Source of the DNA: Burkholderiales bacterium
Lineage (GTDB): Bacteria > Bacillota > Clostridia > Christensenellales > SZUA-584
Direction: 5' to 3'
NCBI GenBank assembly: GCA_050260375.1
Contig: JBLNCA010000037.1
Location: 229,527 to 293,526, forward strand
Length of the DNA: 64,000 bases
Made by a program: the position numbers and the translations under genes. Positions 24,629 through 45,501 of this stretch are shown here, one piece after another; position 1 is the stretch's first letter, and each line of letters starts with the position of its first letter. Under the pieces are notes generated by a model, which worked only from the letters and a program-made list of their open reading frames with translations, was not told the DNA's origin and searched no databases.

Positions 24629-24693
24629 AAATTGCTCCAATCTGCCGCTTGAGGTCGGGTAGTACACGACCACCCGACCTGCGGCTTTATGTT

Positions 24694-25449: not shown

Positions 25450-25467
25450 GGTATTTTCATCCTTTCA

Positions 25468-25891: not shown

Positions 25892-25908
25892 AGTGAAAAT
25901 CTCCTTCA

Positions 25909-27363: not shown

Positions 27364-27559
27364 TGACTTCATCACCTCCGCCGGGCAGTTCCGTAATGGA
27401 TACGCACTCGACGCTGTCACCAGGTACGATAACCATCACACGGCGCTTTTCACCGAAGAAATGCCGAAGTAGTCGCTCGCGCATTGATACACGTCGGCAT
27501 CTGACGACACCGCCCTCGGTGGGCTTCTTCGAAACGCTGATTTTCAAATTGTGCTTCAT
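27353..27559 (-). CDS. Small conserved phage protein
   Basis: RBS; MKHNLKISVSKKP...VPGDSVECVSITE; overlaps the helicase start. Confidence 0.7.
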   Translation of the reverse strand: MKHNLKISVSKKPTEGGVVRCRRVSMRERLLRHFFGEKRRVMVIVPGDSVECVSITELPGGGDEVNEQ

Positions 27560-27642
27560 TTCTATCTCCGTCCTTTCCGAGGGACGGTGTAGATGTGTCC
27601 CTCGGTATACGGAGAAAAAGTGGGGGTTTTATACACCCATTT

Positions 27643-28029
27643 CTAAAAATGTTTTTTGAATTTTTTCTTTGCACTTTCGATTGATTTCCACGCAGCGTTT
27701 GGAGCGACGTCTTCGATACGGGCAATCTCATTAACCGACAAGCCATCAGCAAGCATTAACAGTCGCCGTTTCTGTGTTTCCGAAAGCTTGTCCAGCGCAG
27801 TGTTGATCCGAGCGGCGTCTTCTTCGCGTATCAAATCGGTTTCGGGAGTAGTGTCTATCGCATACTCGAGTCCCTCGTAATCGATAGCGTCGAGCGAATA
27901 GCAGTGGTAGCGCTCCTTACGGGCGAGATTGCTCTCCTCGCGTCGTGATGCTGTTATGTAGCTCCCGATTTCCTCGTTGACTTCAACTTCTGCTGTGGTT
28001 CCGTCTGCGAATTTCCATTGAATTCTCAT
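27643..28029 (-). CDS. Sigma-70 region 4 family phage regulator
   Basis: ALDKLSETQKRRL...GLSVNEIARIEDV..AAWKSI; start at ATG 28029 after AAAGGA. Confidence 0.8.
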   Translation of the reverse strand: MRIQWKFADGTTAEVEVNEEIGSYITASRREESNLARKERYHCYSLDAIDYEGLEYAIDTTPETDLIREEDAARINTALDKLSETQKRRLLMLADGLSVNEIARIEDVAPNAAWKSIESAKKKFKKHF

Positions 28030-28033
28030 GCGT

Positions 28034-28223
28034 TGTGTCCTTTCCGCCTGTGTGCGGATGAGGGCGACAAGGACACATAAAAAGCCGGTGCTTCGATGTA
28101 AACCGACCGTTACGCCTGAAATGGGCATGACAAGGCACGGTGGGTACATCCGAGGCTCCGAACACGGCGTTTACCGTGCTTGGAACTTCCTATGTATCCC
28201 GCCGCCTTAATGCGCATCTCAGG
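28034..28223 (-). promoter_or_regulatory. Structured RNA leader: long rod hairpin, terminator-like hairpin, RBS-sequestering hairpin
   Basis: Hand pairing: CCTGAGATG/CATTTCAGG, AAGGC/GCCTT, TACAT/ATGTA, GCACGG/CCGTGT; GTCGGT/ACCGGC plus TTTTT; GTGTCCTT/AAGGACAC. Confidence 0.6.
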
Positions 28224-28324: not shown

Positions 28325-28434
28325 ACCTTTAGTTTGTTGCATCGGCTGTTGCAACCAGCTTTGTATTGCATTTTTCTTCAGATATGAATCATTCTGCTGA
28401 CAATATAATTGTATTTGATTTTCTGTTTTTACCA

Positions 28435-28470
28435 CGGAACGCAACGGACTGATTCGGACCGATTCGGACT
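28435..28470. repeat. Four CGGA(A/C)(C/T) direct repeats at 10-bp period
   Basis: CGGAAC-GCAA-CGGACT-GATT-CGGACC-GATT-CGGACT. Confidence 0.8.
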
Positions 28471-28495
28471 ATGGGCAGAGAAAGGAGAGGCGCTT

Positions 28496-29467
28496 GTGAA
28501 GCCGGATGAATATTTCAGAATGATGTATCCCTATATTGGACAAGCAAAGCAGCCAGCAGAGTATCTAGATGACCTACTCTGCAATTTTGTCGTGGATGAT
28601 GCAGACTTCGCCGGAAGCCCTCTGACTGATAAAACTCCAGATTACAAAAATCGCATATATAACGGATCGAAGCCGTTTCCAATATCACTTGCGGCACAGC
28701 TTCTAGACGCAAGTGACCCTATGTGCTTTTCAGCTTATATAAATGACAGCCTTTCTAATGATCTCGCAGAAAATCTTGAAAAGGAGTTAACAGAGCTTGG
28801 CATTGATATCCAAGGCGATGATGTCGCCGATAAATGCGCCAAGCTCTTTGTTTCAATTTTGACGGAAACTGCGAGGCGAACAAAAAGAAAAGACACCCCC
28901 GCCGGTGCTGCTTCATATGGGAAGCAGAAACTAACAGGAGTGCCAATAGCAACTGTATATGTAAGGGACGGAAAAATTTCAATTAACGGGCAGGTGTTTA
29001 ACCTACATAAAAAAATAACTCCGCCCGAAGATATTGCCCAAGAGGAAATGCCATACATTAAGGCGCTATTTGCTGCTTACGCACAAGCTACAGGTATGGC
29101 TTGTGTAACGAAAGATAATTTGTCTACACTTAACGCCAGATATCGCCGTAACTATTCGGATCAGCGTGAAAACTATTATAATGCTGTTCGGGTAGAGCGT
29201 TCAGTGCGTGAAATATTCGAGAATGGTGATGTGGAATTTGGCAAGATAAAGGAAGATGCTTACAACGGTATCATTGATGTATGTTGGAATGATTTTGATG
29301 ACGGTTTTAAACGTCTATTGGCTGTTTTAAATCAGGTGTCACAGATAACGCTAACAAAATCTTTTCTCACGCAAATCAAAGATCTTATCAACAACAGCGA
29401 AAAGAAAGGCATTTGCCATATGCTGGTGAATGACGGGAAAATCCAGTGGGTGTTTGACGATGACTGA
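28496..29467 (+). CDS. Lamassu/ABC-3C effector (LmuA-like) with XRE-HTH-like N-terminus
   Basis: C-terminal EMPYIKAL..QRENYYNA..KKGICHMLVNDGKIQW typical of ABC-3C CTDs; N-terminal TPDYKNRIYNGSKPFP; GTG start after AAAGGAG. Confidence 0.7.
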   Translation: MKPDEYFRMMYPYIGQAKQPAEYLDDLLCNFVVDDADFAGSPLTDKTPDYKNRIYNGSKPFPISLAAQLLDASDPMCFSAYINDSLSNDLAENLEKELTELGIDIQGDDVADKCAKLFVSILTETARRTKRKDTPAGAASYGKQKLTGVPIATVYVRDGKISINGQVFNLHKKITPPEDIAQEEMPYIKALFAAYAQATGMACVTKDNLSTLNARYRRNYSDQRENYYNAVRVERSVREIFENGDVEFGKIKEDAYNGIIDVCWNDFDDGFKRLLAVLNQVSQITLTKSFLTQIKDLINNSEKKGICHMLVNDGKIQWVFDDD

Positions 29468-29903
29468 ACTGTTTAACACCCCGTTCGAAACTTCACTCCG
29501 CGTTCTTCTGACCCTACGCGTATTTGGAGAAGCTATGACGCTGGACAAAATTGCTGCCGCTGATTTTATGACGATTTATGCTCGTGATTTTAGCCTTGCT
29601 GCGTACAACCTGAATGGTGACAACAGCTTAAGTTTTAGTGAAGTAGCGTCAAAGAGAGTGCTTGTTGGCAAGGCAATTAAGCAGCTTGTACTTAATAGGC
29701 TCGTATCAGCAGTACAAAACCGAAGCGGCTTTACATACGAAATAACAGCACAAGGAGCGCATATATGTGACGAGCTGACTTCCGACTATACCGATGAGTA
29801 TATTGTTATGTCTCAAGCGGTTTGCAAGTATATTGAAGGCAAGTCAGAAGTTGAAATTCTCGCAGAAATTAATAAAAGAGCACTTAGCGGAAAGGAGGAG
29901 TGA
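29460..29903 (+). CDS. ABC-3C middle component (LmuC-like)
   Basis: LFNTPFETSLRVLL...DFMTIY...NLNGD; overlaps both neighbours. Confidence 0.75.
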   Translation: MTELFNTPFETSLRVLLTLRVFGEAMTLDKIAAADFMTIYARDFSLAAYNLNGDNSLSFSEVASKRVLVGKAIKQLVLNRLVSAVQNRSGFTYEITAQGAHICDELTSDYTDEYIVMSQAVCKYIEGKSEVEILAEINKRALSGKEE

Positions 29904-31747
29904 ACATGGCAGATTTTTATATAAATAAGCTAATAGTCAAGGGTGCCGGTAAAAAGGATGCTGTTGCAGAGTTTGACAGAGGGCTTACGATTATATCGGG
30001 TCCTTCAAACACAGGAAAAACCACCATCCTTCGTTGTATCGATTATATTTTTGGCAGTGATAATCTTCCGTTTGCGGGTGCCACTGGTTATGATACTATT
30101 ATGCTTTTTGTTAGCACAGAAGATGGCTCGATTCAATTTACACGCAAACTGGAATCAAACAAAATCGATGTAGTTAGTTCTGACGATAGAATCGAAAGTG
30201 GTACTTATAAAGCCAGAAACGCGACGAAAACCATGGAATCTATCAGTAAGGTTTGGCTTGCTTTAATTGGTATAGAGGATGACCATGACATAATTGCCAA
30301 CGAAAATTTTAGACCACAACATCTGACATGGCGCACCTTCCTGCCCGTCATCCTAATAAAGGAACGTCAGATAGAACGAGAGAGTTCTATCCTTATGCCA
30401 GAAGGCGGTGCAAAAAGCATACAGGGGCGCACAGCTTTCCTCTCATCTTTATTGTTTTTGATATACGGAAACGACTTCTCCAATTTTGATGAACGCGAAA
30501 GCAAAAAAGAACGAGCCATACGAAAAGCAGCAGTTGAAAAGTATATCAATAAAGAGCTTTCCGGAGTTGCAGACCGAAAACAAAGTATCCTTGATATGAT
30601 TGGTGCATTTGACGGGTTGGACGTCCAAAAAGAAATTGACAATGCAGTTCAAGCATTATCGGATATCGAAGAAAAAATATCAGCCGCGATGTCAAACAGC
30701 CAGTCGTTACTCAACAACATGCTAGCGAAGAAAGAGCGTTTGACAGAATGCCAAATGCTTATATCACGCTACGCCGCACTAAAAACGCAGTACAGCGCAG
30801 ACATAAAGCGGCTTTCATTTATCGTTGACGGCGAAACCGTTATGAAACATGTGTCGCATGACTCTAACTGCCCGTTTTGTAATGGGAAAATCCCGACACA
30901 GAATACGAAATCTTACATTGAGGCTGCCCGATCCGAGCTTTCAAGGATAGTGGCTCAATATAACGACCTTGTTGGTGCAGAAGATGATATCAAACAACAA
31001 ATACAGGAATTACAGACAGAGATTGTGCTACTGACAGAACAGAAAAGCAGTGTGGAAGAGCTGATAGCAAAAGATCTGCAGCCACAAGCCAGAGCTCTTT
31101 CTGAGACCATTGATGCTTATCGCGTATATATACAGTTAAACTATGAGCTCGATGTAATACACCGCCTCGCTGATGGATGGTATAGCGACCTGCGTGATAT
31201 GCAGAACGAAGATGTATCCGAAATTAAATATAAGCCAATGGACAAGTTTGATGACCGATTTTGGGAAGGGATGGATGCTGCACTAATTGAAATATTGACG
31301 GAGTGCAAGTACACGCCTCTTATCTCAGCGCGATTCTCAAAGAGCTCTTTCGACTTAGAAATTAACGGACAAGCAAAAGCTTTAACGCAAGGTAAAGGTT
31401 ACTGCTCCATTTTAAATACGATTGTGGTCATGGCATTTCGCAAATTCATGTTGGAAAATGCTGTTTACAATCCTGGGCTATGTATCGTTGACACGCCGCT
31501 ACATGGAATTGATGAGGGAACAAAGAATGAAACATCGGAGAGTGTACAAACCGCTTTGTTTCAGTACTTCATCAATAGCCGAGAAATGGGACAGCTGATA
31601 ATCGTGGAAAACGAGCGGACGCTACCTAATCTCGATTATAATCAGAACGGTGTAAGACGAATCATCTTCACAGGCATCGTCGGTGAAGATCAGTGTGGTT
31701 TTTTGCATGATTGCAAATTTGATATACCACAATCCCCAAAAGAGTGA
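29900..31747 (+). CDS. SMC/Rad50-like ABC ATPase (LmuB-like)
   Basis: Walker A GPSNTGKT, coiled coils flanking a CPFC zinc hook, degenerate signature QGKG, Walker B IVDTP. Confidence 0.82.
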   Translation: MNMADFYINKLIVKGAGKKDAVAEFDRGLTIISGPSNTGKTTILRCIDYIFGSDNLPFAGATGYDTIMLFVSTEDGSIQFTRKLESNKIDVVSSDDRIESGTYKARNATKTMESISKVWLALIGIEDDHDIIANENFRPQHLTWRTFLPVILIKERQIERESSILMPEGGAKSIQGRTAFLSSLLFLIYGNDFSNFDERESKKERAIRKAAVEKYINKELSGVADRKQSILDMIGAFDGLDVQKEIDNAVQALSDIEEKISAAMSNSQSLLNNMLAKKERLTECQMLISRYAALKTQYSADIKRLSFIVDGETVMKHVSHDSNCPFCNGKIPTQNTKSYIEAARSELSRIVAQYNDLVGAEDDIKQQIQELQTEIVLLTEQKSSVEELIAKDLQPQARALSETIDAYRVYIQLNYELDVIHRLADGWYSDLRDMQNEDVSEIKYKPMDKFDDRFWEGMDAALIEILTECKYTPLISARFSKSSFDLEINGQAKALTQGKGYCSILNTIVVMAFRKFMLENAVYNPGLCIVDTPLHGIDEGTKNETSESVQTALFQYFINSREMGQLIIVENERTLPNLDYNQNGVRRIIFTGIVGEDQCGFLHDCKFDIPQSPKE

Positions 31748-32064: not shown

Positions 32065-33681
32065 ATGGCAACTGATCATAATATAAAATTACATAGTGCT
32101 GATATATCGACCAGCTGTCTTATCAATGCGGTTAGAGTTTCTTTTGGCACATGGTTGTCAGGTAATAAGAGCAAGCATGAAACAGCACTTATTCTATCAT
32201 CGCTTGATAGTGCCTCTGAGCAGATGTTAAAGCGAAAGATAATAGATTGTTCACTGTGGGAAATAACAAACCCCGCTGTTTTCATTGAGGTCTATAATAA
32301 GGCACGTGACAACAAGTTATTTAGAGTAATGGATAAGAAATGCTATTTATCGTTTATGCGGGATGGGCGAGTGTTTTTAAAGTTCCTCAAATCAAAGCCA
32401 GCTATACAGATTGATAATGCTTCGAAAAATATATCACCTTTGGACGAACAGCAAACTACACCTTTGACCATCAAAGATGCAGTGGTAACGGTGCTTACAG
32501 AATCATCCCAGGCATTAACCGCTAATGAAATATATGACGAGATAGTAAAACGTTGCTTATATACATTTGGGGCGCAAAACCCTGTTAACGTTGTTCGAAA
32601 TATTATCGAGAGCGCTTGTGATAATTCTACATACTCTGAACAAAATAGAGCATCTGTGCCATACTTTCACTTTGAAGTAAATGAGGCTGGTAAAAGAGTT
32701 TATTGTCTATTAAATGATATACAAAAATACCACCAGCAACCTGTCAATACAAACGTTTACTCCTCATCTCTCAGCAACATCGTTGATCTTGAAGAAGGAA
32801 AAGCTGGCATAAGAGAAATTCTTGAAGCCCACTTTCAGACGCTTTACGGGTACAGTAATATCAGTATTCTATGGAATGCAGCTCAGGATACTCTACCACT
32901 GTTTCTAAATGATAATGCTATTAATACTGCTGATCAACTATGGCGCCTTACATACAATGCTTTTGAAAATGAATATGTAATGAGTTATCCTCACATATGG
33001 AAAGCGCAGCCAAATTATCCACAGAGCTATGTAGGTGTTATCATCAACCTTGCTAGACAGTTAGGTGGAACCGTTACCAGAGAACAAATTGATGATTATT
33101 TCACACGTATTAAACAAAGGTCGCCTATCAACGCGACGGTTATACGTCAGGGATTATTGATGTTCTACGCTTCTAAACATTTCATACTAACAGAGATTGT
33201 TGAATTGACAAATGAGCGTTGTGCCGCAATAACAAAGTCATTGAACAAGCTCTTTGCGTGCGAAAATGTGTCTTACATTGTATTACGGGACATAGCCTCT
33301 AAATGGTTTTCATCATTACCAACAATAAAGGGTGGTTTGAGTTGGACAGCATTACTGTTACAAGAAACCTTAAGATTGAGACCCGGAATTGGCTATAGGG
33401 TAATATTTTCCGGTCTTGATGGACAAGCGCTTGATACACTCGGGGCCGCAATTGTTCCAAACGAATCGGATATCAGCTGTTTTGCGGATTTGGTGCATCG
33501 ATATTGTCAAGAGAGAAAAATATTGGGCAAGAAAATGGCTACAGAAGAACTTAGAACACTTTTACGTGACGTAGGTATGCTCGAAGGTAATGAACTAATT
33601 TATAACCTTCATAAAGCATTAAAAGACTACCGTTTTGCTTTCACAGACGAAAACAGAATGGTTAAGATATTGGAGAGATAA
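32065..33681 (+). CDS. Hypothetical protein with central HARE-HTH-like winged helix
   Basis: TIKDAVVTVLTESSQALTANEIYDEIVKRCLYTFGAQNPVNVV; 5 nt upstream of the PAPS reductase gene. Confidence 0.6.
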   Translation: MATDHNIKLHSADISTSCLINAVRVSFGTWLSGNKSKHETALILSSLDSASEQMLKRKIIDCSLWEITNPAVFIEVYNKARDNKLFRVMDKKCYLSFMRDGRVFLKFLKSKPAIQIDNASKNISPLDEQQTTPLTIKDAVVTVLTESSQALTANEIYDEIVKRCLYTFGAQNPVNVVRNIIESACDNSTYSEQNRASVPYFHFEVNEAGKRVYCLLNDIQKYHQQPVNTNVYSSSLSNIVDLEEGKAGIREILEAHFQTLYGYSNISILWNAAQDTLPLFLNDNAINTADQLWRLTYNAFENEYVMSYPHIWKAQPNYPQSYVGVIINLARQLGGTVTREQIDDYFTRIKQRSPINATVIRQGLLMFYASKHFILTEIVELTNERCAAITKSLNKLFACENVSYIVLRDIASKWFSSLPTIKGGLSWTALLLQETLRLRPGIGYRVIFSGLDGQALDTLGAAIVPNESDISCFADLVHRYCQERKILGKKMATEELRTLLRDVGMLEGNELIYNLHKALKDYRFAFTDENRMVKILER

Positions 33682-33686
33682 AAAGA

Positions 33687-36014
33687 ATGTATGGTTATCA
33701 ATGGACTGATAAAAATGGAATATATCGCCTTGTGCCTAACGCCAAGGTTATCAAAGAAATTCGACCCGTTTTTAGGGAGGAACTTGACTACTTTGGTTTT
33801 AATAATTACTGGAATTATCCAAAGACTGATGCTCCACTCCTTTGGGCGGAAGGGATCCGACGGTATGTTGTTAACGGAGAAGTAGTTGCCGAGGCCGTCG
33901 GTGGAGGGTTTTATACAAAGCCAACTATAAATGTAAAAAAAGAGAGATTAACACTTAAAGCAATAAACATTGAACACTTATGGAAAGAAAATGAAAGCCT
34001 CATGAGAGGGCTTGAAGATAAAGCGATTGAGTTTATACGCCAAATTCATGATGAATATGCCGCCAAAGGAATGAAGTTTGTTGTTGCTTTCTCTGGAGGT
34101 AAGGATAGTCTCGTTTTACTCGACCTTGTTGCCAAGGCCCTGAGACCTGACGAATTTGTTGTTATTTTCAGTAATACTGGAATGGAGTTTAGTGCAACGA
34201 TCGACGCAGTAAAGAGAGCAAAGGAAAACTGGAGTAAGCTTCGTTTTTATGAAGCAGAGAGCCACATGTTACCGGAAACAACATGGGACGCTTTTGGTCC
34301 CCCAGGTCGAAGAATGCGGTGGTGCTGTTCAGTTCATAAATCAGTACCAACAATGCTAAAACTACGGGAAATTACTGGCGATTACGATGCTAAAGCAGTA
34401 GTCTTTGAAGGGGTGCGTTCGGAAGAGAGTTTTGCTAGATCTGAATATGAAACAGTCCGGGAAGGCGTAAAGAATATCAATCAGGTAAATGTCAGCCCTA
34501 TACTCACTTGGGGAACAGCAGAGATTTATCTCTACTTGCTCAAAAACAAGATATTGCTTAACGATGCATATAAAGAAGGCTTTAATCGTGTAGGCTGTTC
34601 AGTGTGTCCTATGTCGTCTCCTTGGCGCGATCACCTAAGTTATGGATTCCATAAAGATGAAATTCAGCCACTTCTCAATGTGGTTGAAGATTATGTTGAA
34701 AGAGTCAAACCGGCCAAGAGTACCCAAAAGTATATTGAGAACGGCGGCTGGCGTGCAAGGATGGGGGGCCGTGGATTAAAAAACGGCGGCAATCGTGTCA
34801 CCGAAGTAATAGATGGCGATAAGATAATTTTTAGATTTACAAAGAGAACGGGTAACTGGTTAGATGTTGCAAAAATACTAGGAGAAATAGTTGAGAAAAA
34901 TGGTAATTCTTATACTCAGATTATTTCTCATCAAACATATACCTTTACGTTGGCAGGTGAAACGGTTACATATTCTCCATATACTCAAATGGACAGATTT
35001 GTTATTAGTAAACTGCGTGGCGTCGCATATAAAGTGGCGTACTGTATAGGTTGTAAAGCTTGTGTCGTGCAATGCCCCACAGGAGCATTTGAAATAACAG
35101 AAGAAAATAAAATCCTAATTCGTGAGGAATTATGTACTCATTGTGGCAATTGCATCAGTTTTACTGGTGGAAAAGGATGCCTTGTCGCAAAATCTTTATC
35201 GACTACGGAGGGAAATAATATGCAATTGAAAGGCATGAACAGATATCAAACATTCGGTTTCCGCCGTCCATGGCTAGAACATTTCTTTGAGCATGGTACG
35301 GACTGCTTTACACAGGGGCAGCTTGGAAACAGACAATATGATGCACTGCGTGTTTGGTTGCGCGAGGCAGAACTTCTTGAACCTTCAAACAAGGGAGATA
35401 AATCTGGAACGATGACCGAGTTATGCAATAAGCTCGTTGCACTTGGAGCTGGCAATCCAATGGTCTGGGCTGTGATTTGGACAAATCTTGCCTATAACTC
35501 TGTTATCACAAAGTGGTATATGTTGTACACGCAAAGTGGCGAGACTTATGATAAGGCCGAACTTGTATTCATGCTTGGCGACGACTACTCTCCATCTACA
35601 CGTGATAATGCGGTGACTGCTTTACTCGAAACTTTCCGCCACTCGCCAATTGGTACCGCACTCAAACAGGGTATTCCGATTCCTGATGGCGCAAGTTATA
35701 AGTTCGTGAAGCAAGGTTGGGATGCCCCAGAAGCCGCAGCAATTCTCTATGCGCTCTATAAGTTTGCTGAGGAAACAGGGCGATACACATTCACCTTAAC
35801 TCAACTTGATAACGCTCGCGGTAATGCTGAGGCTAAGGGTGTAGACCCTGTAGCTATTTTCGGTTTAAATCCGAAAAATTTCAAAGCCATTGTGCAGGAC
35901 ATTGCGCTACAATATCCTGAGTTCATCCGTGTGGCATTTGTCCAAGACCTCGATAACATTATGCTTGTACCCGAAAAGAAAGCCATCGATGTGCTCGACA
36001 TTATCACAGAGTAA
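33687..36014 (+). CDS. brxP: BrxP-like PAPS reductase fused to 2x[4Fe-4S] ferredoxin and a DUF4007-like domain
   Basis: AFSGGKDS, RWCC, RVGCSVCP; CIGCKACVVQCP and CTHCGNC; YQTFGFRRPWL...WLREAELL C-terminal domain. Confidence 0.8.
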   Translation: MYGYQWTDKNGIYRLVPNAKVIKEIRPVFREELDYFGFNNYWNYPKTDAPLLWAEGIRRYVVNGEVVAEAVGGGFYTKPTINVKKERLTLKAINIEHLWKENESLMRGLEDKAIEFIRQIHDEYAAKGMKFVVAFSGGKDSLVLLDLVAKALRPDEFVVIFSNTGMEFSATIDAVKRAKENWSKLRFYEAESHMLPETTWDAFGPPGRRMRWCCSVHKSVPTMLKLREITGDYDAKAVVFEGVRSEESFARSEYETVREGVKNINQVNVSPILTWGTAEIYLYLLKNKILLNDAYKEGFNRVGCSVCPMSSPWRDHLSYGFHKDEIQPLLNVVEDYVERVKPAKSTQKYIENGGWRARMGGRGLKNGGNRVTEVIDGDKIIFRFTKRTGNWLDVAKILGEIVEKNGNSYTQIISHQTYTFTLAGETVTYSPYTQMDRFVISKLRGVAYKVAYCIGCKACVVQCPTGAFEITEENKILIREELCTHCGNCISFTGGKGCLVAKSLSTTEGNNMQLKGMNRYQTFGFRRPWLEHFFEHGTDCFTQGQLGNRQYDALRVWLREAELLEPSNKGDKSGTMTELCNKLVALGAGNPMVWAVIWTNLAYNSVITKWYMLYTQSGETYDKAELVFMLGDDYSPSTRDNAVTALLETFRHSPIGTALKQGIPIPDGASYKFVKQGWDAPEAAAILYALYKFAEETGRYTFTLTQLDNARGNAEAKGVDPVAIFGLNPKNFKAIVQDIALQYPEFIRVAFVQDLDNIMLVPEKKAIDVLDIITE

Positions 36015-36027
36015 AGGAGATAGAGGT

Positions 36028-39000
36028 ATGAAGTACAGTAATTACATTGAATTGTCTGCAAACTACGAGTCTGTTGTTGATTTGGATGCAGAAAAACGCA
36101 ACCCGAATCTGTGGCAAGAGTACATAGTCCACGATGATATGAAAAATGCTATCGACGCAATTTGTCAAACTATGTTATGGGAGGATAATGACAAGCGTCG
36201 TTCCTTTTGGATTCATGGAGCGTACGGTACAGGCAAGAGCTATGCAGCTATAGTGCTCAAGCATCTTTTTGAGGATAGTATTACTAATATCGAACCCTTT
36301 TTGAGTCGCCCTTCTCTTGCTGAATACAAAAAGCGTTTTTTAAAGATTCGCGAGAAAGGTGAATTTCTGGTCGTTTGGAAAAGCGGAGCAACTGACATCA
36401 AAAGCGGCACTCATCTTATGATGGAGATGGAGGTTAAGATAAAGGAAAAACTTAAAGAAAAGTTTGGCGAAAAGGCATATTATGGAACAAGCTCGCTTAT
36501 AAACGCAGCAAAGGATGCCATTAACGACAAGAGTATCAACTGGACATATCTATTTACGGATATTCAATACGGCCTTTCTGACCAATATTCCGATTTTGAT
36601 GAGTTCCAACAAGCGGTTTTGGACGGTGATTCTGATGCTATCCATCTTGTCAAGCGCATCTGTGACGATAATAAGCGCACCATGTTCACAGGTGTTGTAG
36701 ATAGGTTTGAAGAATGGATAAAAGACATCATTGCCGGCAATAAACTTTCTGATACAGGTATCGTATTCATATGGGATGAATTTACCGGATTTTTAAGGGA
36801 TTGCGGAGATGACAATGTACTGCAACGGCTTTCCGAATTGTGCAAATCTGTGGATAAAGATGGCAAGGCGAAACCTAATGCACCGTTCTTTATGTGTCTT
36901 ATAGTTCACCGTGACCCTACTTGGGTATCAGAACTTGGTGACGAAACCTATGAGAGAATCTTGCATCGCTACCATGAATTAAAATTCCATATTACCGAGA
37001 GCGCTGCATACGATTTAATTGGCGATTCGATTATTCCTCGTCCAGGCATGGAAACCCAATGGGAAGAAGTAAAAAAGGATTTGATGAAATCCATTGAAAA
37101 TTATAAGATTGAGTTTGATAATCTTGATCAGAGTATAAATATCAATGAGCGGCTTGCGAAACTATGTCCAATTCACCCTATGACACTTGCAATGCTTGCC
37201 ACCGTAGCAGAACACTTTGGTGCTTCCCAGAGAACATTATTTCGGTTTATGAAAGACGAGGCAAAATCCTCAAAAGGCGTTGGATTTATCCACTATATAG
37301 AAAATAATGAACCAAATAAATGGCAATGGTTAACTGTTGATTATCTTTGGGATTATTTCTTTACTATAGAGTCCGACTCACGCGATAAAGATGTAAAGAC
37401 ATTTACCCCAGAAACATTAAAAGCTATACATCATTTTCAGAATAAGGCTGATTCGATTTCTGATGAATATGCGCTCCATGTCTTTAAGGCAGCATTGCTT
37501 TTAATTGCCGTAATGAGCGGTAGCAATATTAGTAATTTATATAGCAAACAAAATCGCCCGAGCAGAAAAATCGGTGCAACAAGAAATACTCTTTATAAGT
37601 GTTTTCGTGGCCAATTAGACCAGGCGACTATTGATGAATATCTTACTTCTTTTAAGGAAATCGGATTGCTTAGTATTGGAGAAATGCTTAACGGCGACGC
37701 TCGCTTAGAATTGCCCTATACAGGGAGCACAGACACATTCGATGTTAGGCTCGAGATGACCAAGAAAAAATATACGCGATATGCACTCTTCGCTACGAAG
37801 GGAATCTTTTCAAAAATAATAGAAAATGGAATGTGGGATCCTACAAGAGCTACTGCAGGGCGTGTGTACATCGCGGCTTGTTCGTCGGAAACCAATTCTC
37901 TATCTGCGCGTCTTGGGGAAGTTAAAAAGGAACTTCAAAACCACCCATATAAAATTGGTATACTTGTTGTTACTGTTTCCGAAGCGAGGGAGTATACCAG
38001 CTTTCAAGCAAAGATAAAGCAATTATCTTTGGAAGACGATAGCAAGCGTCTTGTTATCGCAATGCTTCGTGAGCCATGCACAGCAGATTTGCTGGATCGT
38101 TGGCATAAAGCTATTACGCATAAAGAACTCTGCGCGGAAGAAGGCAAGTCAGGTGATGCAAGCAAATATGAAACAGAGGCGAACATGATTGTTGCCACAT
38201 GGGCAGGTCCCGCATTAGATTCTCAGATCTATGCTTGCTATGGTGATATTCAATTCACAGGGGTTTATGGGAAGAGCGATTTGATGAAGCGGATAGAAAA
38301 AGATGTGATTTATACAGTTTTTCCGGCTGCTCCTGAGCGTCTTGTGACGGTTAACACAGCATATAGAAAGTGTACTGATAAAGTTGTCTTGGCTGGTCTG
38401 ACTAAGGAAGTGACCAATGCGCAGGTTAATAATATTGTAAATGCTTTAAAGGCTATTGGAGCATGGGAAATTAATGACTTGGGTGGCCTGATAAGCCTGA
38501 GCGGTACAAACGCAGAGGTTATTTCTACCCTCGCTTCATATTTTCAGCAGGAATTTTCTCAAGGCGCGAAAATCTCGCTTGATTTACTTTGGGCGAAGTT
38601 ACAGCAACCACCCTTCGGATATTACAACTCGATGACTGTTGGGTGCTTTATTGGACTTGTCATGCGTTCCCTCGTTAATGGCTCATTTAACTGGTTTGAT
38701 GGCGTAAACACCCTGCCGCCAACAGCGGGTAATCTGGCGAGTATGGTCAGTAAGATGCTTGACGGAAAAACCATTAATCATAACCTCTCATCTGGCTCTG
38801 CTATTTGGCAAAAATTCAAGCAATATATTCAAAAATTATTTGGCCTTTCAGCTCAGGAGGTTGTTAGCGATGCAGAGGCACGAAAATTTATTAAGCAGAC
38901 AATTACTAGAACTGGCGTTCCGTTTTGGGCAATAAAATATTTGCCTAGTGATAAATTTGGTGGCGATGAGTTTAAGTCGATAGTTATTCGAATAACAGAT

Positions 39001-40263
39001 TTACTGTGCAGCTTCATCTATGAAACTACTGATGATCAAGAAACTGTGATGGCAGAAGTGCTTACACAGTTCAATGGTCGTGGACAACTTCGGCAAGCGA
39101 TGACATCAATCCTTGCTGACAAAACGGTAATGCTTTCAGCGTTTAAGCAATTTATGTTTTTAAAGGTTAAGGAAATAGAAAATTTAAGCAAAAGCCTTGA
39201 CTTGACCGATAAAGACATTTTTGATGCGCTTCGAATCTATCTACAGGATTCGATATCAGCCTGGCGCGAAGAACAAGTGGCAGAAAAACTTACAGAATTA
39301 GCGCAAGAATTCAAAGTGATTGATACCATTAAATCCGAAATTGGCGCGAACGTAAAAACCTATCGCGCCGTACAAAATGCTTTAAATAATGTCTTTGAAC
39401 ATATGAAGGTACCTGGAACAGTCATAGAGACATTATCCGTTAGCTGGATTCCGGCATTAAAACTTTTACGAGAGATTTCAAAAGTACCATGGACTGAGCT
39501 TCCTAACAAAAAAGTTGTAGTTGCAACTCTAGAAGGAAGCGCAAAAATCGCATGGGAAAATCTCTCTCAGCCCAAGCAGCTTCTAGAAGCAGTCTTCAAT
39601 GCTCGCCGCATTATAGTTACTGATGATGAGCTGGAAGAGGTATATACTGCTCTAAAACAGCAGACATATGAAACGCCGATAAATGTTTTTGATACTAGGT
39701 TGAATGCATTGTTGGATAATGTTCAGTACACCCGTGACTCTGCAAAGGCTAAAGAACTATGGTATGATACCACGGGTACTAAAAGCGTACGTGATTGGTG
39801 TAATAACGCAAACATACCAATAGCGTGGTTGTTTGATGGAGCAAGCATTATGGCTATAAGGGCAATCAAGGCACTACAAGATGGACAAGTAGTAGAAAAA
39901 GATGCTCTTGCAAAAGCTATAACTTTCTTAAATGGCAGTGAGCTTGCTGTGCTCAAGGACCCGGTGTACATAGCTGACCGATTCTTTGCTCATATCGGCG
40001 AAAATTATCGTCCAGCATTCAATACTGACAGAAGGATTCTACTTGACAGGCTCAAGACTAATTCGAAGTTGACTTCAGACGTTTATACATGGGAAAACAA
40101 AATTCCCGAGATACGTGCTGTTCTTGACTCCTATTTGCAGAAAAAATATATTGATGAAGCCAAGAAGCGTATAGGGTCAAAGATGTCTGAGAAGGAACTA
40201 AAAGATATCGTACTTAAGCTTCTTGATGAGAATCCTGAACTATACAGCTATTTCCTAAATTAG
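36028..40263 (+). CDS. brxC: BrxC/SspC-like large P-loop ATPase
   Basis: Walker A GAYGTGKS, Walker B IVFIWDEF, CPIHP, SQRTLFRF; ATG 36028 after AAGGAG. Confidence 0.75.
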   Translation: MKYSNYIELSANYESVVDLDAEKRNPNLWQEYIVHDDMKNAIDAICQTMLWEDNDKRRSFWIHGAYGTGKSYAAIVLKHLFEDSITNIEPFLSRPSLAEYKKRFLKIREKGEFLVVWKSGATDIKSGTHLMMEMEVKIKEKLKEKFGEKAYYGTSSLINAAKDAINDKSINWTYLFTDIQYGLSDQYSDFDEFQQAVLDGDSDAIHLVKRICDDNKRTMFTGVVDRFEEWIKDIIAGNKLSDTGIVFIWDEFTGFLRDCGDDNVLQRLSELCKSVDKDGKAKPNAPFFMCLIVHRDPTWVSELGDETYERILHRYHELKFHITESAAYDLIGDSIIPRPGMETQWEEVKKDLMKSIENYKIEFDNLDQSININERLAKLCPIHPMTLAMLATVAEHFGASQRTLFRFMKDEAKSSKGVGFIHYIENNEPNKWQWLTVDYLWDYFFTIESDSRDKDVKTFTPETLKAIHHFQNKADSISDEYALHVFKAALLLIAVMSGSNISNLYSKQNRPSRKIGATRNTLYKCFRGQLDQATIDEYLTSFKEIGLLSIGEMLNGDARLELPYTGSTDTFDVRLEMTKKKYTRYALFATKGIFSKIIENGMWDPTRATAGRVYIAACSSETNSLSARLGEVKKELQNHPYKIGILVVTVSEAREYTSFQAKIKQLSLEDDSKRLVIAMLREPCTADLLDRWHKAITHKELCAEEGKSGDASKYETEANMIVATWAGPALDSQIYACYGDIQFTGVYGKSDLMKRIEKDVIYTVFPAAPERLVTVNTAYRKCTDKVVLAGLTKEVTNAQVNNIVNALKAIGAWEINDLGGLISLSGTNAEVISTLASYFQQEFSQGAKISLDLLWAKLQQPPFGYYNSMTVGCFIGLVMRSLVNGSFNWFDGVNTLPPTAGNLASMVSKMLDGKTINHNLSSGSAIWQKFKQYIQKLFGLSAQEVVSDAEARKFIKQTITRTGVPFWAIKYLPSDKFGGDEFKSIVIRITDLLCSFIYETTDDQETVMAEVLTQFNGRGQLRQAMTSILADKTVMLSAFKQFMFLKVKEIENLSKSLDLTDKDIFDALRIYLQDSISAWREEQVAEKLTELAQEFKVIDTIKSEIGANVKTYRAVQNALNNVFEHMKVPGTVIETLSVSWIPALKLLREISKVPWTELPNKKVVVATLEGSAKIAWENLSQPKQLLEAVFNARRIIVTDDELEEVYTALKQQTYETPINVFDTRLNALLDNVQYTRDSAKAKELWYDTTGTKSVRDWCNNANIPIAWLFDGASIMAIRAIKALQDGQVVEKDALAKAITFLNGSELAVLKDPVYIADRFFAHIGENYRPAFNTDRRILLDRLKTNSKLTSDVYTWENKIPEIRAVLDSYLQKKYIDEAKKRIGSKMSEKELKDIVLKLLDENPELYSYFLN

Positions 40264-40275
40264 GAGGGCGTTGCG

Positions 40276-42393
40276 ATGAATATTGCTGAAATTATCTTTA
40301 AGGTGTCCAATGAGCGTCAAACACCTGGTAGATTTCCGACGCGATTAATATTTGCCCACAACTTCACCGACTATCTATCCTTGGTCGGTGAGCTTAAGGC
40401 TGTATGCGATGAGGTAATTGACCTATCTGCTTTTACTAAAGGAGATGTTCTACCCCGCTTTAAGGATTTCAAAAACGAGTTAGCCAAGCATTCGGGAAAG
40501 CAATTACTTCTGCTCTCAGTTGGAGAATATCTTCGCATTTGTATAAAGCGTGAACGTGATAAGGCAACCGCTAATTTCCCTGGTATATGGGAGCAACTGC
40601 AGCCAGAAAGTTCTACAACAAAGTATATAATCCCGATATTTGGAGGCAGAGAAATATTTGATTCCATAATGCCAATTCAAGATGAGCGGCAGCAACAATT
40701 CATTTGGGAGGTAAATGAGTCTTCAAGCGAATCTGAGTACAGCATTACTATCTATTCCCCTGATTTCAAGGAGGCAATTGCTGCAGATGCCATGAATTTG
40801 CAAGAATGGTTTCTGAAGTGGACATCATTATTTGGTGACAAAAACCGAAAAAGCTTTTCACTCCTAACTAAATTGTACCGATATGCGGAACCTGTATACG
40901 GCGGAGTTCGCTTGAACATCGTTGATGAACCATTTGCCTATGTTGCTTCTCTTGTTACCGATGGCGAGAAGCTTAATAAGAATGATGGCAACGAAAAATT
41001 TTGGAAATTCATTGCTCAAAACGTGAAACGGGATAAACCGTTTGCAGAAACCATTAAGTATTTACTTAATTTCGACCTCAATATTGACCCCATTAGTGCA
41101 TTAGCACGCTTTAACGAACTCTCGGATGATGAATTGAACTTGTTGCGCATATGGTACAAACTATACCCGTCAGACGACTACTACACATTTGCTATCAACA
41201 GGGCAGCAACAGCGAGAGAGATACCCGTTTCGCTTAGAGACTCCATTTTCGAATTACCTAAATTGTCGGACTCTTTCATCCGCCAAAGGACTGCTGCATT
41301 GAGGGTTCTAGACTTATCTTATAGTGAAAAATATTTTACAAGACTCGACAAAATCCCCGACCCTGAATCCAGGTTGATGATGCTGACATACAGGACACTT
41401 GCGGAACGCGCATATGCTGTGAAAACAATAAGCGGTCTTTTGCGTAGCGGCGCTGATGTCAACGCTCTTGTTGAGCAACTCAAATTCGATTACCCTGATT
41501 TGGCCGAATATTTAAATCCTGATGCTACTAACTCAATATCAGGAGAAGTAAAACAGTATTTCAATTGGTATCGTCGTAGTAAATTGATAAATAGGCCTAA
41601 CACAGATATACCTTGTAGTATTGATTTTGATGGTATTGATAGCAGAAATAAAGTAATTCAACAAAATAGCAGCAACGATAGTCTTCAGTTTTGGATCGAC
41701 GGATTAGGTGCAGAATGGATTCCCGTATTATTAAGAAGACTAAATTCTCTTGGCATTGAGGTTACCGTGAAGGCACTAATTACAAAGGCGCTTTTACCTA
41801 CGGAAACTGAATTCAACCATAAATGGACGGCTACAGATGTTAAATGGGATCGGCTCGACAAACTCTCTCATAATGGCATGCCAGATGATAAGGATTATTT
41901 CCTGTGCATTGCCCGTCAATTGGAGATTATGAAAGAGATTGTTGAACATGTTTCAGAAATGCTGTTAAAAACAAATAGGGTTATTGTAACTGGAGATCAC
42001 GGTAGTAGCCGGCTTGCGGCTTTGCTCTTTCATGATGCGGAGAATTTTGCTATTGAGCCTCCTAAGAACGCAATCGTACGCTCTTTTGGAAGGTTTGTTG
42101 AGTTACAAGATGACAGTTATATAACATTAACAACTTCAATGGAGCGTACAGAAATTGACGGAAAACACTATATCGTTATGAAAACCCATGAGCACTTTAA
42201 ACAATCAGGCAATGCGGCAGGCGGAAATACCGACGAGAAGGCTGTTGCTGGGGAAATACACGGTGGTATGACACCTGAGGAATATCTTGTGCCTGTAATA
42301 ATCGTAACTCGCAAAATTCCACTATCTCCCAAAGAAACAACAAAAAAACCAAAGGGAATAACGATTAATGATGATATACTGGGGTTGCCATAA
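40276..42393 (+). CDS. pglZ: PglZ alkaline-phosphatase-fold protein (BREX type 4)
   Basis: WIDGLG, LPTET, TGDHG, HGGMTPEEYLVP. Confidence 0.88.
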   Translation: MNIAEIIFKVSNERQTPGRFPTRLIFAHNFTDYLSLVGELKAVCDEVIDLSAFTKGDVLPRFKDFKNELAKHSGKQLLLLSVGEYLRICIKRERDKATANFPGIWEQLQPESSTTKYIIPIFGGREIFDSIMPIQDERQQQFIWEVNESSSESEYSITIYSPDFKEAIAADAMNLQEWFLKWTSLFGDKNRKSFSLLTKLYRYAEPVYGGVRLNIVDEPFAYVASLVTDGEKLNKNDGNEKFWKFIAQNVKRDKPFAETIKYLLNFDLNIDPISALARFNELSDDELNLLRIWYKLYPSDDYYTFAINRAATAREIPVSLRDSIFELPKLSDSFIRQRTAALRVLDLSYSEKYFTRLDKIPDPESRLMMLTYRTLAERAYAVKTISGLLRSGADVNALVEQLKFDYPDLAEYLNPDATNSISGEVKQYFNWYRRSKLINRPNTDIPCSIDFDGIDSRNKVIQQNSSNDSLQFWIDGLGAEWIPVLLRRLNSLGIEVTVKALITKALLPTETEFNHKWTATDVKWDRLDKLSHNGMPDDKDYFLCIARQLEIMKEIVEHVSEMLLKTNRVIVTGDHGSSRLAALLFHDAENFAIEPPKNAIVRSFGRFVELQDDSYITLTTSMERTEIDGKHYIVMKTHEHFKQSGNAAGGNTDEKAVAGEIHGGMTPEEYLVPVIIVTRKIPLSPKETTKKPKGITINDDILGLP

Positions 42394-42593
42394 TGAGAGG
42401 GAAAAAGATATGCACTGAGTGCAATAAAATTTTGAATAAGGATGAAGTAGCGCTTACACAGAAAATGCTCGGAAAAGATATAAACGAGTTATACTGTATT
42501 GACTGCCTCGCAGAATATATTGATTGTGATCGCAGTGATTTGGAAATAAAAATTGAAGAATTCAAGGAACAAGGTTGTGCTTTGTTTCTTTAG
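42393..42593 (+). CDS. 66-aa Cys-rich putative zinc-binding protein
   Basis: CTEC...CIDC...GCALF; TAATG coupling to pglZ. Confidence 0.75.
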   Translation: MRGKKICTECNKILNKDEVALTQKMLGKDINELYCIDCLAEYIDCDRSDLEIKIEEFKEQGCALFL

Positions 42594-42604
42594 GAGGATA
42601 GCCA

Positions 42605-44038
42605 ATGGACAAGATTAAAGAAGTTTTCGCGGAGATGGTAGTACTTAAGAATCCTGAACGAACTAAGTTTTTTGCAGATCTTAGTCTACCGTCTTATATG
42701 AGAGACTGGCTTGTAATGAAATTTTCTGATGAAAACGGGAACATTGACTACAACGGTGTAGCTCGATACATAAAGAAATATATCCCTAACCGTGAGGATT
42801 ACGAGCAATTCAAATTCCAGATGGTCAACGGGGAGAGCATCCGTTTTCTTGCCAGAATTCGAGTTGGGGTTGATGTCAAAACGGGAAAGACATTATTTGA
42901 ATTACCAGACTTCGGTGGCACAAAGTCTGGCGCTGGTGGTGAAGTTGCCAACGACGTAGTCAGCAGATGGCAGGAGACATTGCTTCGTGAAAGCGAGAAC
43001 TGGGGAATCATTGACCTTGTGTGGGAACAGGACTTCTCTAAAAAACCTCCACGTGGATATGTCAAGTTGATTGGTTACCAGCCGTTTTGCCCATATAGTG
43101 TGGACTTGGAATTTTACCGAGAAGCCCGTAACAATTTCACAACCGAAGAGTGGCTTGATTTGCTTATCTCTGCCGTAGACTACAACCCAGGCGGATATGA
43201 TTCTGAGGAAGAAAAAATGTATTTTATCCGTCGCTTGTTACCTTTTGTTGAACGGCGAGTAAACTTGATTGAGCTTGCACCTCGTGGTACAGGTAAAAGC
43301 TATGTATATGAAAAAATCAGCAAACGCGGCTGGGTTGTTTCGGGTGGCACGGTATCAAGAGCTACCCTATTCTACGATAACAACTTGAAAACTGGAGGAC
43401 TTGTTACACGTTTCGACTATGTTGCATTTGATGAAATACAGAACATGAAATTTCTTGAACCTGCACAGATACAAGCCGCTCTTACTACCTATATGCAAGA
43501 CGGTATCGTTAAGGGGTTTGATTCTGAAATTCCTGCTAGTTCAGGGATTGTTGTTTTAGGGAATATAGAAGCGGAGAAATTTAACACACATGTTAATATG
43601 GTTGATGCAATAAACCCGATTTTCCGCAAAGCTGAAACACTTGATAGAATCCATGGATTCATTCCGGGATGGAAGATACCAAAATTTCATCAAAACTTAG
43701 TTGCTAAGGGTTGGGCTTTAAATACTGAATATTTTGCAGAAGTCCTACATTCACTACGTGATGAATTGCATTATTCAACTTTAGTGGATTCATGCATTGT
43801 AGTGCCACCAAAAGCATATAAGCGTGACCTTGATGCAATAACACGTCTTTGCACTGGATTTGTAAAGCTGTTATTTCCGCATGCAAAAACGAAGAATGAT
43901 ATTCCGCAGGATGAATTTGTTAAATATTGTCTTGAACCAGCTAAAGAAATGCGACAGGTGATAAGGAATCAATTGCATGTGATTGCTCCGAAAGAATACA
44001 TTAACCCTGACGTGCCAGATATTCAATACAAAGAATAG
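42605..44038 (+). CDS. brxL: BrxL-like AAA+ ATPase lacking the Lon protease domain
   Basis: EWLDLLISAVDYNP, ELAPRGTGKS, AFDEI, DRIHGFIPGW, MRQVIRNQL; ends at 477 aa. Confidence 0.85.
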   Translation: MDKIKEVFAEMVVLKNPERTKFFADLSLPSYMRDWLVMKFSDENGNIDYNGVARYIKKYIPNREDYEQFKFQMVNGESIRFLARIRVGVDVKTGKTLFELPDFGGTKSGAGGEVANDVVSRWQETLLRESENWGIIDLVWEQDFSKKPPRGYVKLIGYQPFCPYSVDLEFYREARNNFTTEEWLDLLISAVDYNPGGYDSEEEKMYFIRRLLPFVERRVNLIELAPRGTGKSYVYEKISKRGWVVSGGTVSRATLFYDNNLKTGGLVTRFDYVAFDEIQNMKFLEPAQIQAALTTYMQDGIVKGFDSEIPASSGIVVLGNIEAEKFNTHVNMVDAINPIFRKAETLDRIHGFIPGWKIPKFHQNLVAKGWALNTEYFAEVLHSLRDELHYSTLVDSCIVVPPKAYKRDLDAITRLCTGFVKLLFPHAKTKNDIPQDEFVKYCLEPAKEMRQVIRNQLHVIAPKEYINPDVPDIQYKE

Positions 44039-44059: not shown

Positions 44060-45196
44060 TTGATTTATGCAGATAATGCTGCCACAACTAAACTTGATAA
44101 TGAAGCCTTTGAAGCAATGATTCCGTGGCTGCGAGATAACTATGGTAATCCATCTGCCCCATATTCATTTTCGCGTGCTGAACGGAAAGCAATTGCAGAG
44201 GCACGTGAAATTATCGCAGATTGTATTAATGCTAAACCAGATGAAATATTTTTCACATCCGGCGGCACCGAGAGTAATAACTGGTCTATAAAAGGTATCA
44301 CACAATATTATAACCTAAATGGTGCCTTTAACGCTCGGCGAACAATTATTACTTCACCTATTGAACATCATGCAGTATTGAATTCTTGCAACACATTGGA
44401 GCGTAATGGCTACCCTGTCCTTTATTTGCCCGTTAAACAAGATGGATTGATTGATTCTAATGTTCTTAAAGATTACATAACAGATACTTCGATAGTTGTG
44501 TCTGTTATGCTTGCTAACAATGAAATTGGAACAATACAGCCAATAAAAAAGATAGCTGAAATCGCACACCAGCATGGGGCACACATGCACACTGATGCAG
44601 TACAAGCAGTTGGACATATTCCAGTAAATGTACAAGACCTATGTGTTGATTTACTTTCTGCATCTGCTCATAAGTTTCACGGCCCAAAAGGTGTGGGTTT
44701 TTTATACATACGTAAAGGAACTAATATTTTACCGTATATCGATGGCGGTGCTCAAGAAAAAAGACTCCGTGCTGGAACAGAAAATGTGGCAGGTATTGTC
44801 GGAATGGCTGTTGCACTAAAGAATTGTGTTAGCCAAATGCAAAAAGAAGCTGAACGATTAAAGATAATAACTGAACGATTTTACAGTGAGCTTGATAAAT
44901 TTGGGATAGATTATGTTATTAACGGGGATAAAAGCAAAAGGCTTCCAGGCAATATTAATATTTCAATAAAACATTCTAATGGAGAAATGCTGCTTCATCG
45001 CCTTGATCTGAAAGGTATATATATATCCACCGGAGCAGCTTGTGATTCTAAAGAAACAAAACTTTCACATGTCATTGAAGCAATTCGGGTTCCAAAAGAG
45101 TACGCTGAAGGAACACTTCGAATCTCTTTTGGAAGGGAAAATACTGTTGATGACAGTGTTACTATTGCTGCTGCAATCTCTGCCATTGTTCGTTAA
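44060..45196 (+). CDS. Cysteine desulfurase (IscS/DndA/SspA-like)
   Basis: YADNAATT, FTSGGTE, SAHKFHGPKG, RAGTEN, catalytic STGAAC. Confidence 0.93.
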   Translation: MIYADNAATTKLDNEAFEAMIPWLRDNYGNPSAPYSFSRAERKAIAEAREIIADCINAKPDEIFFTSGGTESNNWSIKGITQYYNLNGAFNARRTIITSPIEHHAVLNSCNTLERNGYPVLYLPVKQDGLIDSNVLKDYITDTSIVVSVMLANNEIGTIQPIKKIAEIAHQHGAHMHTDAVQAVGHIPVNVQDLCVDLLSASAHKFHGPKGVGFLYIRKGTNILPYIDGGAQEKRLRAGTENVAGIVGMAVALKNCVSQMQKEAERLKIITERFYSELDKFGIDYVINGDKSKRLPGNINISIKHSNGEMLLHRLDLKGIYISTGAACDSKETKLSHVIEAIRVPKEYAEGTLRISFGRENTVDDSVTIAAAISAIVR

Positions 45197-45245: not shown

Positions 45246-45501
45246 GTTGACTTATTCCCGCGAACGGACAAAAGCTGTTGAACTGTTCCCGCGAACAGAT
45301 AGTACCCATCAAATCCAGTATCGACCTATTTCCGCGAACGAGCAAAACGAAAAATACAGACCAGACATCGAGGTGAGCCTATCGTTCCACGTTGAGACGG
45401 CTGTACTTTTGTCCAAACAGCGGCCAAAGGACAGAATCCAGGTTGAATTAGATACGAAAGAGATGGATATCACCTCTGACGAGACGAAAGCGAACTATTA
45501 A
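45246..45501 (+). repeat. Tandem rlmD/rumA 3'-end-like attachment-site remnants
   Basis: 21-nt repeats at 45246, 45277 and 45320 reading VDLFPRT/VELFPRT/IDLFPRT, then HVETAVLLSK...DITSDETKANY* from 45388. Confidence 0.7.

Follow-up and report, generated by a model that had tools for sequence, protein, structure and literature searches.

Three short direct repeats resembling the 3′ end of rlmD (rumA) lie to the right of Lamassu and BREX genes in a stretch of DNA that was analyzed at its full length (the window; 64,000 nt, G000:C37:229527-293526). The locus raises the question of whether these repeats are scars of separate integrations or part of a single mobile element, and whether the defense genes belong to that element. 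The first-pass annotation had taken the repeats for scars of repeated integration at one hotspot that mark a prophage end, with everything to their left travelling with the phage. The features of the repeat region are the following.

45246..45266, plus strand: unit 1, GTTGACTTATTCCCGCGAACG, reading VDLFPRT; outermost part of the conserved block assigned to the right arm, where similarity between loci starts.
45277..45297, plus strand: unit 2, GTTGAACTGTTCCCGCGAACA, reading VELFPRT; majority frequency 0.87.
45320..45340, plus strand: unit 3, ATCGACCTATTTCCGCGAACG, reading IDLFPRT; 68 nt before HVE, majority frequency 0.92.
45341..45389, plus strand: 47-nt core-proximal half-site (P half), ending ...GACATCGAGGTGAGCCTATCGTTCCA; most conserved stretch (0.94, final CA 0.98).
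45390..45501, plus strand: right flank with the HVE codons and a truncated long-tail relic, AVLLSK...KANY*; outside the prophage.

The sequence bore out three 21-nt direct repeats of the form (V/I)(D/E)LFPRT. They are separated by gaps of 10 and 22 nt, their starts are 31 and 43 nt apart, and they use all three reading frames. Differences between units fall mostly at third codon positions, at the synonymous first position of Leu, and in V/I. A degenerate 21-mer, allowing two mismatches at most, matched the 64-kb window three times, at units 1 to 3, and had no match in any of 100 dinucleotide-preserving shuffles. A repeat search of the window grouped the units as one 25-nt family with spacings of 31 and 43. 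The 11-mer TTYCCNCGNAC by itself was discarded as a marker, being frequent genome-wide and uninformative.

The distance to HVET is 142 nt from unit 1, 111 nt from unit 2 and 68 nt from unit 3. HVETAVLLSK...DITSDETKANY* spans 45388 to a stop codon at 45499-45501, within the open reading frame 45244-45501. The host genome's own RlmD, encoded on contig C14, reads VDMFPHT-T-HVEAIIVLQKANT, with a single codon between T and HVE, and its C-terminal end is VDMFPHTTHVEAIIVLQKANT*. In the window, 47 nt separate unit 3 from HVET, and no unit is joined to HVE as in real RlmD. The proposal that the units are look-alikes of the rlmD 3′ end is supported. No second copy of the block, of the left arm described below or of the tail was found elsewhere in the host genome.

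We searched one genome per species with a degenerate pattern and obtained 36 block loci, mostly from Bacillota metagenome-assembled genomes (MAGs). An ungapped alignment of 35 rows comprised the window, the viral locus L026 and 33 of the 36 genome loci; L124, L127 and L128, with differing unit spacing, were left out. Apart from the window, the 146-nt block is thus present at one viral locus and at 33 loci of public genomes, beside many different right-hand partners. The 31/43-nt spacing fits 31 of the 35 rows, and unit 1 is shifted by about 10 nt in L120, L121, L125 and L126. Across the 35 rows the majority frequency was 0.54 for the 16 nt flanking unit 1 on its left, 0.80 in unit 1, 0.82 in spacer 1, 0.87 in unit 2, 0.83 in spacer 2, 0.92 in unit 3, 0.94 in the 47-nt half-site and 0.98 at the final CA; beyond it, the values were 0.69 and then 0.59. 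An exact-match pattern scan of viral contigs for a unit plus HVE returned only four loci.

The edges of similarity were sharp, lying just before unit 1 on the left and just after CGTTCCA on the right. The flank after the CA was HVE-type in 25 rows, HIE in one and unrelated in nine. The sharp drop after CGTTCCA and the varied right flanks indicate that the block ends at window position 45389 and travels with the sequence on its left. Homology between the window and the viral locus L026 ended at 45405. From these alignments we place the right terminus of the element, and the crossover, at about 45389-45396. The site was correctly recognized as a prophage end, in that a serine-recombinase element has its right end there. 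Conservation is not confined to the ~50 bp around the crossover that is the criterion for classical large-serine-integrase sites: the right arm has 146 nt and three repeats, and the left arm about 290 nt.

Metagenome contigs from four runs showed a depth peak over 45265-45415 and ran into a variety of partners beyond 45392-45400 and ahead of 45242-45247. Right of 45416, contig cover was low or absent in three of the four runs. In two of the four, the block's partner, 'TAGTATTGATGTGTGCGTCC', corresponds to the left arm plus the beginning of an intron. These junctions between block and left arm come from other strains and display the architecture rather than excision at this locus; tandem copies could also yield them.

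The prophage continues left of the window to lysis genes and two large serine recombinase genes, LSR1 and LSR2, as judged from open reading frames and Pfam matches. These genes, which the first-pass annotation expected on that side, lie on the minus strand at C37:219121-220689 and 221108-222670, about 10 kb from the window. Each has Pfam Resolvase, Recombinase and Zn_ribbon_recom domains; a 143-aa open reading frame lies between them, and amidase and holin genes come next. There was no tyrosine integrase at this end, the genome's sole match being on contig C6, not C37. When the far end from the recombinase was searched for the block in five provirus records, none was found there, only the known copy of G031 and one 25-nt match. 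An LSR1 search in five long block-bearing MAG contigs delimited no second complete element, the recombinase pairs (G036) being in the wrong geometry.

Farther left, a conserved non-coding segment of about 250 nt (C37:214438-214714) is preceded by 'VEMFLHTEHVETVVLM'. It is joined to an rlmD-like relic, VEMFLHTEHVE. The arm is split by a 1,902-nt group II intron (C37:212551-214452, or L003:7551-9452; Rfam RF02003 and RF00029). Directly before the intron stands '...AVQAVEMFLHTEHVETVVLM' and directly after it 'SIKG*', and the arm without the intron reads HVETVVLM|SIKG*. Relatives read HVECVVLMSRAKE*, HVETCVLMSSVKD* and HVECVVLMSRVDK*; a replacement end for the target gene is supplied in this way. 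We place the left junction at 212527/212528 from the sequence, which gives an element of about 62.4 kb (G000:C37:212528-274915).

The intron carries a reverse transcriptase/maturase gene and sits exactly between 'GTATTGATGT' and 'CAAGGGT', 25 nt past the start of HVE. The same insertion point was seen in contigs of two metagenome runs, and intron ends lie at the edges of L053 and L066. The intron seems to home to this attachment arm. Misassembly caused by it was discarded, as it is single-copy in the assembly.

Viral contigs were searched with LSR1, giving 315 stretches that encode a relative, and the best 80 loci were kept. Among these 80 of 315, a true rlmD 3′ end converges on the recombinase in three (L018, L031 and L040), reading ...VDMFP(R/Q)(T/A)xHVE(C/T)xVLMS...*, and the repeat block stands in place of the rlmD end in two (L026 and L047). 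The ~250-nt segment is common to nine of the same best 80 loci and always adjoins that gene end, which identifies it as the left arm (p′) supplying the new gene end. A plus-strand rlmD had been predicted left of the window. The rlmD-like arm is present there; the intact host rlmD lies elsewhere, on contig C14. The left flank of the element is a ~50-nt rlmD-like relic beside an asparaginase gene, not the host rlmD.

The stretch C37:212241-212414, with weak similarity to RlmD (E 0.027), was rejected as rlmD-derived, as it recurs at 88% on contig C3 beside unrelated genes. This intergenic repeat is about 175 nt long, its second copy being C3:11771-11944. A GC-rich REP-like motif, GTAGGGGCGGTCTTTGACCGCC, precedes both copies and also occurs in intergenic regions of relatives.

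We consider it probable that 45246-45389 is the right attachment arm (P arm) of a large-serine-recombinase prophage of about 62.4 kb that carries Lamassu, BREX type 4 and a DndA-like gene as cargo, the units being inherited with the arm. Elements of this recombinase family would integrate close to the 3′ end of rlmD/rumA, at its His-Val-Glu codons. The left arm would supply the replacement gene end 'VVLM SIKG*', and the right arm, ending ...CGTTCCA, would come to abut the sequence formerly downstream of the target. In this genome, that sequence would consist of a truncated long tail from an earlier ICE-type element and, behind it, GNAT and histidine-phosphatase genes. Two cargo slots are proposed. 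The first, from the replication module to the right arm, would hold Lamassu, BREX type 4 and the DndA-like gene, and the second, from the left arm to the recombinases, nucleotidyltransferase, methyltransferase, hexapeptide acetyltransferase and MFS genes. The units would be a part of the arm inherited in fixed geometry that copies the left half-site of the target (VDxFPxT), with a fourth copy inverted in the left arm. They may serve as extra recombinase-binding sites, in which case their tolerance at wobble positions would mirror natural variation of the target. With their repeats, the arms are an unusual form of an attachment site whose kind is already known.

The strongest competing explanation keeps the block as property of the element and takes the units for non-functional, hitch-hiking relics of an ancient rlmD capture, retained by their nearness to a functional core site. 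We give it somewhat less than an even chance. The spacers are about as conserved as the units (0.82-0.83 versus 0.80-0.92 in the 35 rows), and conservation declines away from the crossover. Several units across loci carry stops or altered residues (FPLT or SPRT), and the units span three frames. These points count for relics, and close copies could be explained by common descent alone. Classical large serine integrases, moreover, need only short, simple sites. Against relics stands the left edge of conservation, which is sharp and falls exactly at unit 1 in many cargo contexts. The block is also 84% identical in nucleotides in a viral record (G031) whose adjoining IscS is only 57% identical in protein.

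Diverged lineages and left arms bear on the same point. A unit is found at -68 in six of the seven diverged lineages listed (L047, L092, L124, L127, L128 and L089, the last at -58), and it stays there where the half-site has fallen to about 50% identity. In L047, L092 and L127, the 11-nt core of the unit is 0.91-1.00 identical to that of the window, whereas the 47-nt half-site is just 0.49-0.55 identical. All 10 left arms examined have an inverted xDLFPR(S/T) unit at a fixed place, about +120 to +143; L016 and L027, with no HVE anchor in the extracted segment, were excluded from this set. Information at codon positions 1, 2 and 3 averaged 1.22, 1.39 and 0.88 bits in 58 distinct direct units, and was 1.68, 1.73 and 1.19 bits in the 10 inverted left-arm units.

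Four direct repeats of an ~18-nt motif (near GAGTGGTCRNTTTAGATG), a second repeat family, follow the inverted unit. They were located in L018, L026, L040, L043, L047, L094, L098 and L102 and at C37:214590-214700.

A bolder reading of the inherited units can be put forward tentatively, at less than an even chance. The arms would form a complex attachment site, with three direct mimics of the target in one arm and a mirror copy about 120-145 nt off in the other. One of the two recombinases would bind all of them, and the resulting wrapped, res-like or intasome-like complex would set the direction of recombination or the choice of site. Wobble-like variation would then reflect a protein that reads a coding target and ignores its synonymous positions. 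Should the repeats indeed bind it, the system would be an example of a large serine recombinase that uses accessory sites, contrary to the usual view of short, simple sites. If true, that would bear on the control of recombination direction and on use in genome engineering.

The window left of the repeats holds the following.

1..28149, minus strand: prophage body, with tail, HK97-type head, portal, terminase, methylase and replication genes up to a sigma-like gene (Pfam).
28409..31747, plus strand: Lamassu LmuA, LmuC and LmuB (PADLOC E 4.9e-98, 3.3e-52 and 1.2e-220; Pfam ABC-3C CTD6 and MC2).
32065..44038, plus strand: BREX type 4, with orf538, BrxP, BrxC, PglZ and BrxL (PADLOC; Pfam).
44060..45196, plus strand: DndA/SspA-like cysteine desulfurase (IscS), the last cargo gene before the block (Pfam Aminotran_5; PADLOC DndA 7.8e-136).

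The element is a siphovirus-like prophage, the replication side of which comprises primase-polymerase, PolA and SNF2 genes and then the sigma-like gene. Two DNA methylases with ParB-N-terminal and N6_N4 domains and a SAM synthetase stand in a row at 13623-17305, likely as a self-protection or anti-restriction module. BREX type 4 is defined by BrxP (a PAPS reductase), BrxC, PglZ and BrxL together. Its set is complete here (PADLOC E 5.6e-237 for BrxP, 1.7e-70 for BrxC, 3.7e-34 for PglZ and 2.9e-174 for BrxL), as is that of Lamassu (LmuA, LmuB and LmuC); orf538 is an uncharacterized 538-aa gene. In the slot from the left arm to the recombinases (C37:214779-219055, GC about 0.40), the cargo genes code for a nucleotidyltransferase, a methyltransferase of class I, a hexapeptide acetyltransferase and an MFS transporter. 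Two of them, those for the methyltransferase and the acetyltransferase, recur in L047 at 80-83%. Their families include antibiotic-modifying enzymes.

The first-pass annotation had Lamassu and BREX travelling with the phage. An alternative, which we find unlikely, is that the defense island at 28.4-45.4 kb forms an element or satellite of its own, lacking a recombinase and possessing the block, the true right end of the prophage being at about 28.2 kb. GC content is 0.46-0.50 in the prophage body versus 0.38-0.43 in the cargo (28409-45196), and the fall at 28.2 kb, to 0.40 from about 0.48, resembles an element boundary, which counts against a single element. Near-identical PglZ-BrxL-IscS-block arrangements occur in other MAGs (L093 and L099), and the adjacency of BREX, IscS and block is retained in three diverged versions. 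The desulfurase likewise adjoins the block in L109 and in L026 (record G031). The block also stands beside many unrelated cargoes, and in L112 it lies 1.4 kb from a recombinase gene.

Against a separate island, 28.4-45.2 kb contains no recombinase gene, and neither 28.15-28.41 kb nor any other part of the window outside the repeat region has a unit, an HVE junction or left-arm sequence. Contig G041:C15 (19.6 kb, from a different MAG) encodes, in order, LSR1 (93% in amino acids), the small open reading frame (94%), LSR2 (96%) and the amidase (99.6%). It continues with the last 100 aa of BrxC (97%), PglZ, BrxL and IscS (99%), and then the block. It is explained most simply, on the basis of its sequence, by a single deletion in a similarly shaped element that joined the amidase to BrxC. 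Record G031 has a related replication module and the same cargo slot, with SNF2 69% identical to that of the window, a diverged BREX type 4, IscS (57%) and the block (84% in nucleotides). After its block come the left arm of a second phage, cargo and an LSR1 relative. The linkage of recombinases, BREX and block in G041 and the pairing of a related replication module with the same cargo slot in G031, together with the lack of a junction at 28.15-28.41 kb, supports the placement of Lamassu and BREX inside the element.

With the block as the exact right boundary of the 62-kb element, at about 45389, Lamassu, BREX type 4 and the DndA-like gene lie inside a serine-recombinase prophage and are therefore movable as cargo. 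As it stands beside many cargoes, the block is a marker for element ends and defense cargo in Bacillota of digesters, sludge, compost and soil. The element measures 62.4 kb versus 42-49 kb for related provirus records, and it is doubtful that a virion would package all of it. The DndA/SspA-like desulfurase directly follows BREX type 4 (33687-44038, with BrxP) in three diverged versions, those of the window, L131 (G031) and L109. This arrangement suggests that the desulfurase and BrxP, a PAPS reductase, are functionally linked.

We compared these features with known systems. SCCmec has a pair of large serine recombinases (CcrA and CcrB), integrates at the 3′ end of rlmH, builds up in tandem and has target-like repeats at its ends. 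The present element resembles it in the recombinase pair, a probable target at the 3′ end of a gene for an rRNA methyltransferase, tandem build-up and terminal target-like repeats. Its target gene and its recombinase family are different, and it is a phage, unlike SCC. Repeats stand on either side of whole SCC elements, whereas the three found here fit within 95 nt of a single arm. Accessory binding sites are known in res of the Tn3 and gamma-delta resolvases and in the arm sites of lambda attP. As in those systems, a repeated, binding-like motif stands at fixed distances beside the crossover in both arms; those systems, however, depend on small serine resolvases or tyrosine integrases, and the units here are only putative binding sites. 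Prophages of the phi-m46.1 type, which sit in rum of Streptococcus, are likened to this one as serine-recombinase prophages with rlmD/rumA as the target, here a probable one.

The consulted portion of a study on ICEs (elements both integrative and conjugative) describes rumA/rlmD as a target of serine-integrase ICEs in streptococci and Clostridia, and cites CTn5 in rumA of C. difficile (Ambroset et al. 2016, PMC4701971). The element resembles the ICEs as described there in its probable target gene, a serine recombinase, probable insertion in the 3′ part and exchange of the C-terminal end. In contrast to those ICEs, it is a prophage with two recombinase genes and a small open reading frame. Its attachment site is outside the integrase gene, its recombinases lie at the end opposite the block, and its arms are long (146 nt and ~290 nt) and repeat-bearing. 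Among the papers listed on serine recombinases targeting rumA/rlmD and on accessory sites in serine-integrase attP, some of which treat rumA as an ICE target, no title or abstract opening describes target-mimicking repeat arrays; nor did those listed on attP bring up accessory sites in classical large-serine-integrase systems.

The sequence right of the crossover had been read as the native end of rlmD. It is instead a truncated long tail that is seen on both RlmD and serine-integrase proteins. HVETAVLLSK...KANY is 58% identical (E 9e-11) to residues 472-509 of a 576-aa RlmD; the window has the first 37 codons of this tail and ends 67 residues early. The long-tail family has at least 7,982 proteins, most of them RlmD of 545-576 aa and some with serine-recombinase domains. 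In streptococcal ICEs, gene ends are exchanged reciprocally between rumA and the integrase gene, according to the same portion of PMC4701971, and the long tail right of the junction fits the exchange described. Given this exchange and the tail's occurrence on both kinds of protein, the right flank probably represents the left end of an older element of ICE type that targets rlmD. GNAT and histidine-phosphatase genes lie right of the block. No cassette-bounding repeats were found in 45200-54500.

It is very improbable that each unit is the scar of a separate integration at the rlmD hotspot and the stack a local history. In favor of it, the units differ mostly at third positions and synonymously in Leu, as if they came from different rlmD genes, serine-integrase elements are documented to target rlmD/rumA (in the portion of PMC4701971 consulted), and the genus relative G003 also has two units beside rlmD. 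Against it, the same units and spacing recur at 31 of 35 loci in many MAGs, linked to the left cargo with differing right partners, the host rlmD is elsewhere and intact up to HVE, and conservative recombination by a single crossover should, from its known mechanism, be unable to stack half-sites 10 and 22 nt apart. A three-unit module inherited with identical spacing contradicts the repeated integration proposed at first. Nor do the units fall into the class of such local scars, their geometry being common to loci of different genomes.

The element, read as one prophage with an inherited right arm, does not sit in an intact target. Its left side retains only the ~50-nt relic (VEMFLHTEHVE) and its right side the HVET long-tail relic, whereas the C14 rlmD (C14:62228-63574) is intact up to HVE. 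The genus relative G003 shares 45452-47154 with the window at 96%. There, an ortholog of the C14 rlmD (88%) lies directly upstream of a two-unit relic, an SRPBCC gene and a 'TKEMDITSDETKANY*'-GNAT-phosphatase module (96%). In G003 and G005, the asparaginase-side flank (C37 up to ~212213-212235) runs on into C49:8344 onward, the stretch of that contig concerned being C49:1-8344. As the two flanks are separate in relatives, the element bridges two loci in G000. These comparisons make it likely that a rearrangement in G000 had one of its endpoints at the attachment site, and the element may have lost the ability to excise.

The rlmD on C14 has another tail after HVE, AIIVLQKANT*, and another element probably sits there. 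In L007 (G003:C38, reverse strand, ~11064-11997), a remnant of about 0.9 kb lies between rlmD and the GNAT module. It comprises a replacement tail, CVVLITRVDKQKAQNDYK*, the units VDMFLLT and IDMFPHT, a degenerate CVET and an SRPBCC gene fused to TKEMDITSDETKANY*, and it may be a single-gene cassette.
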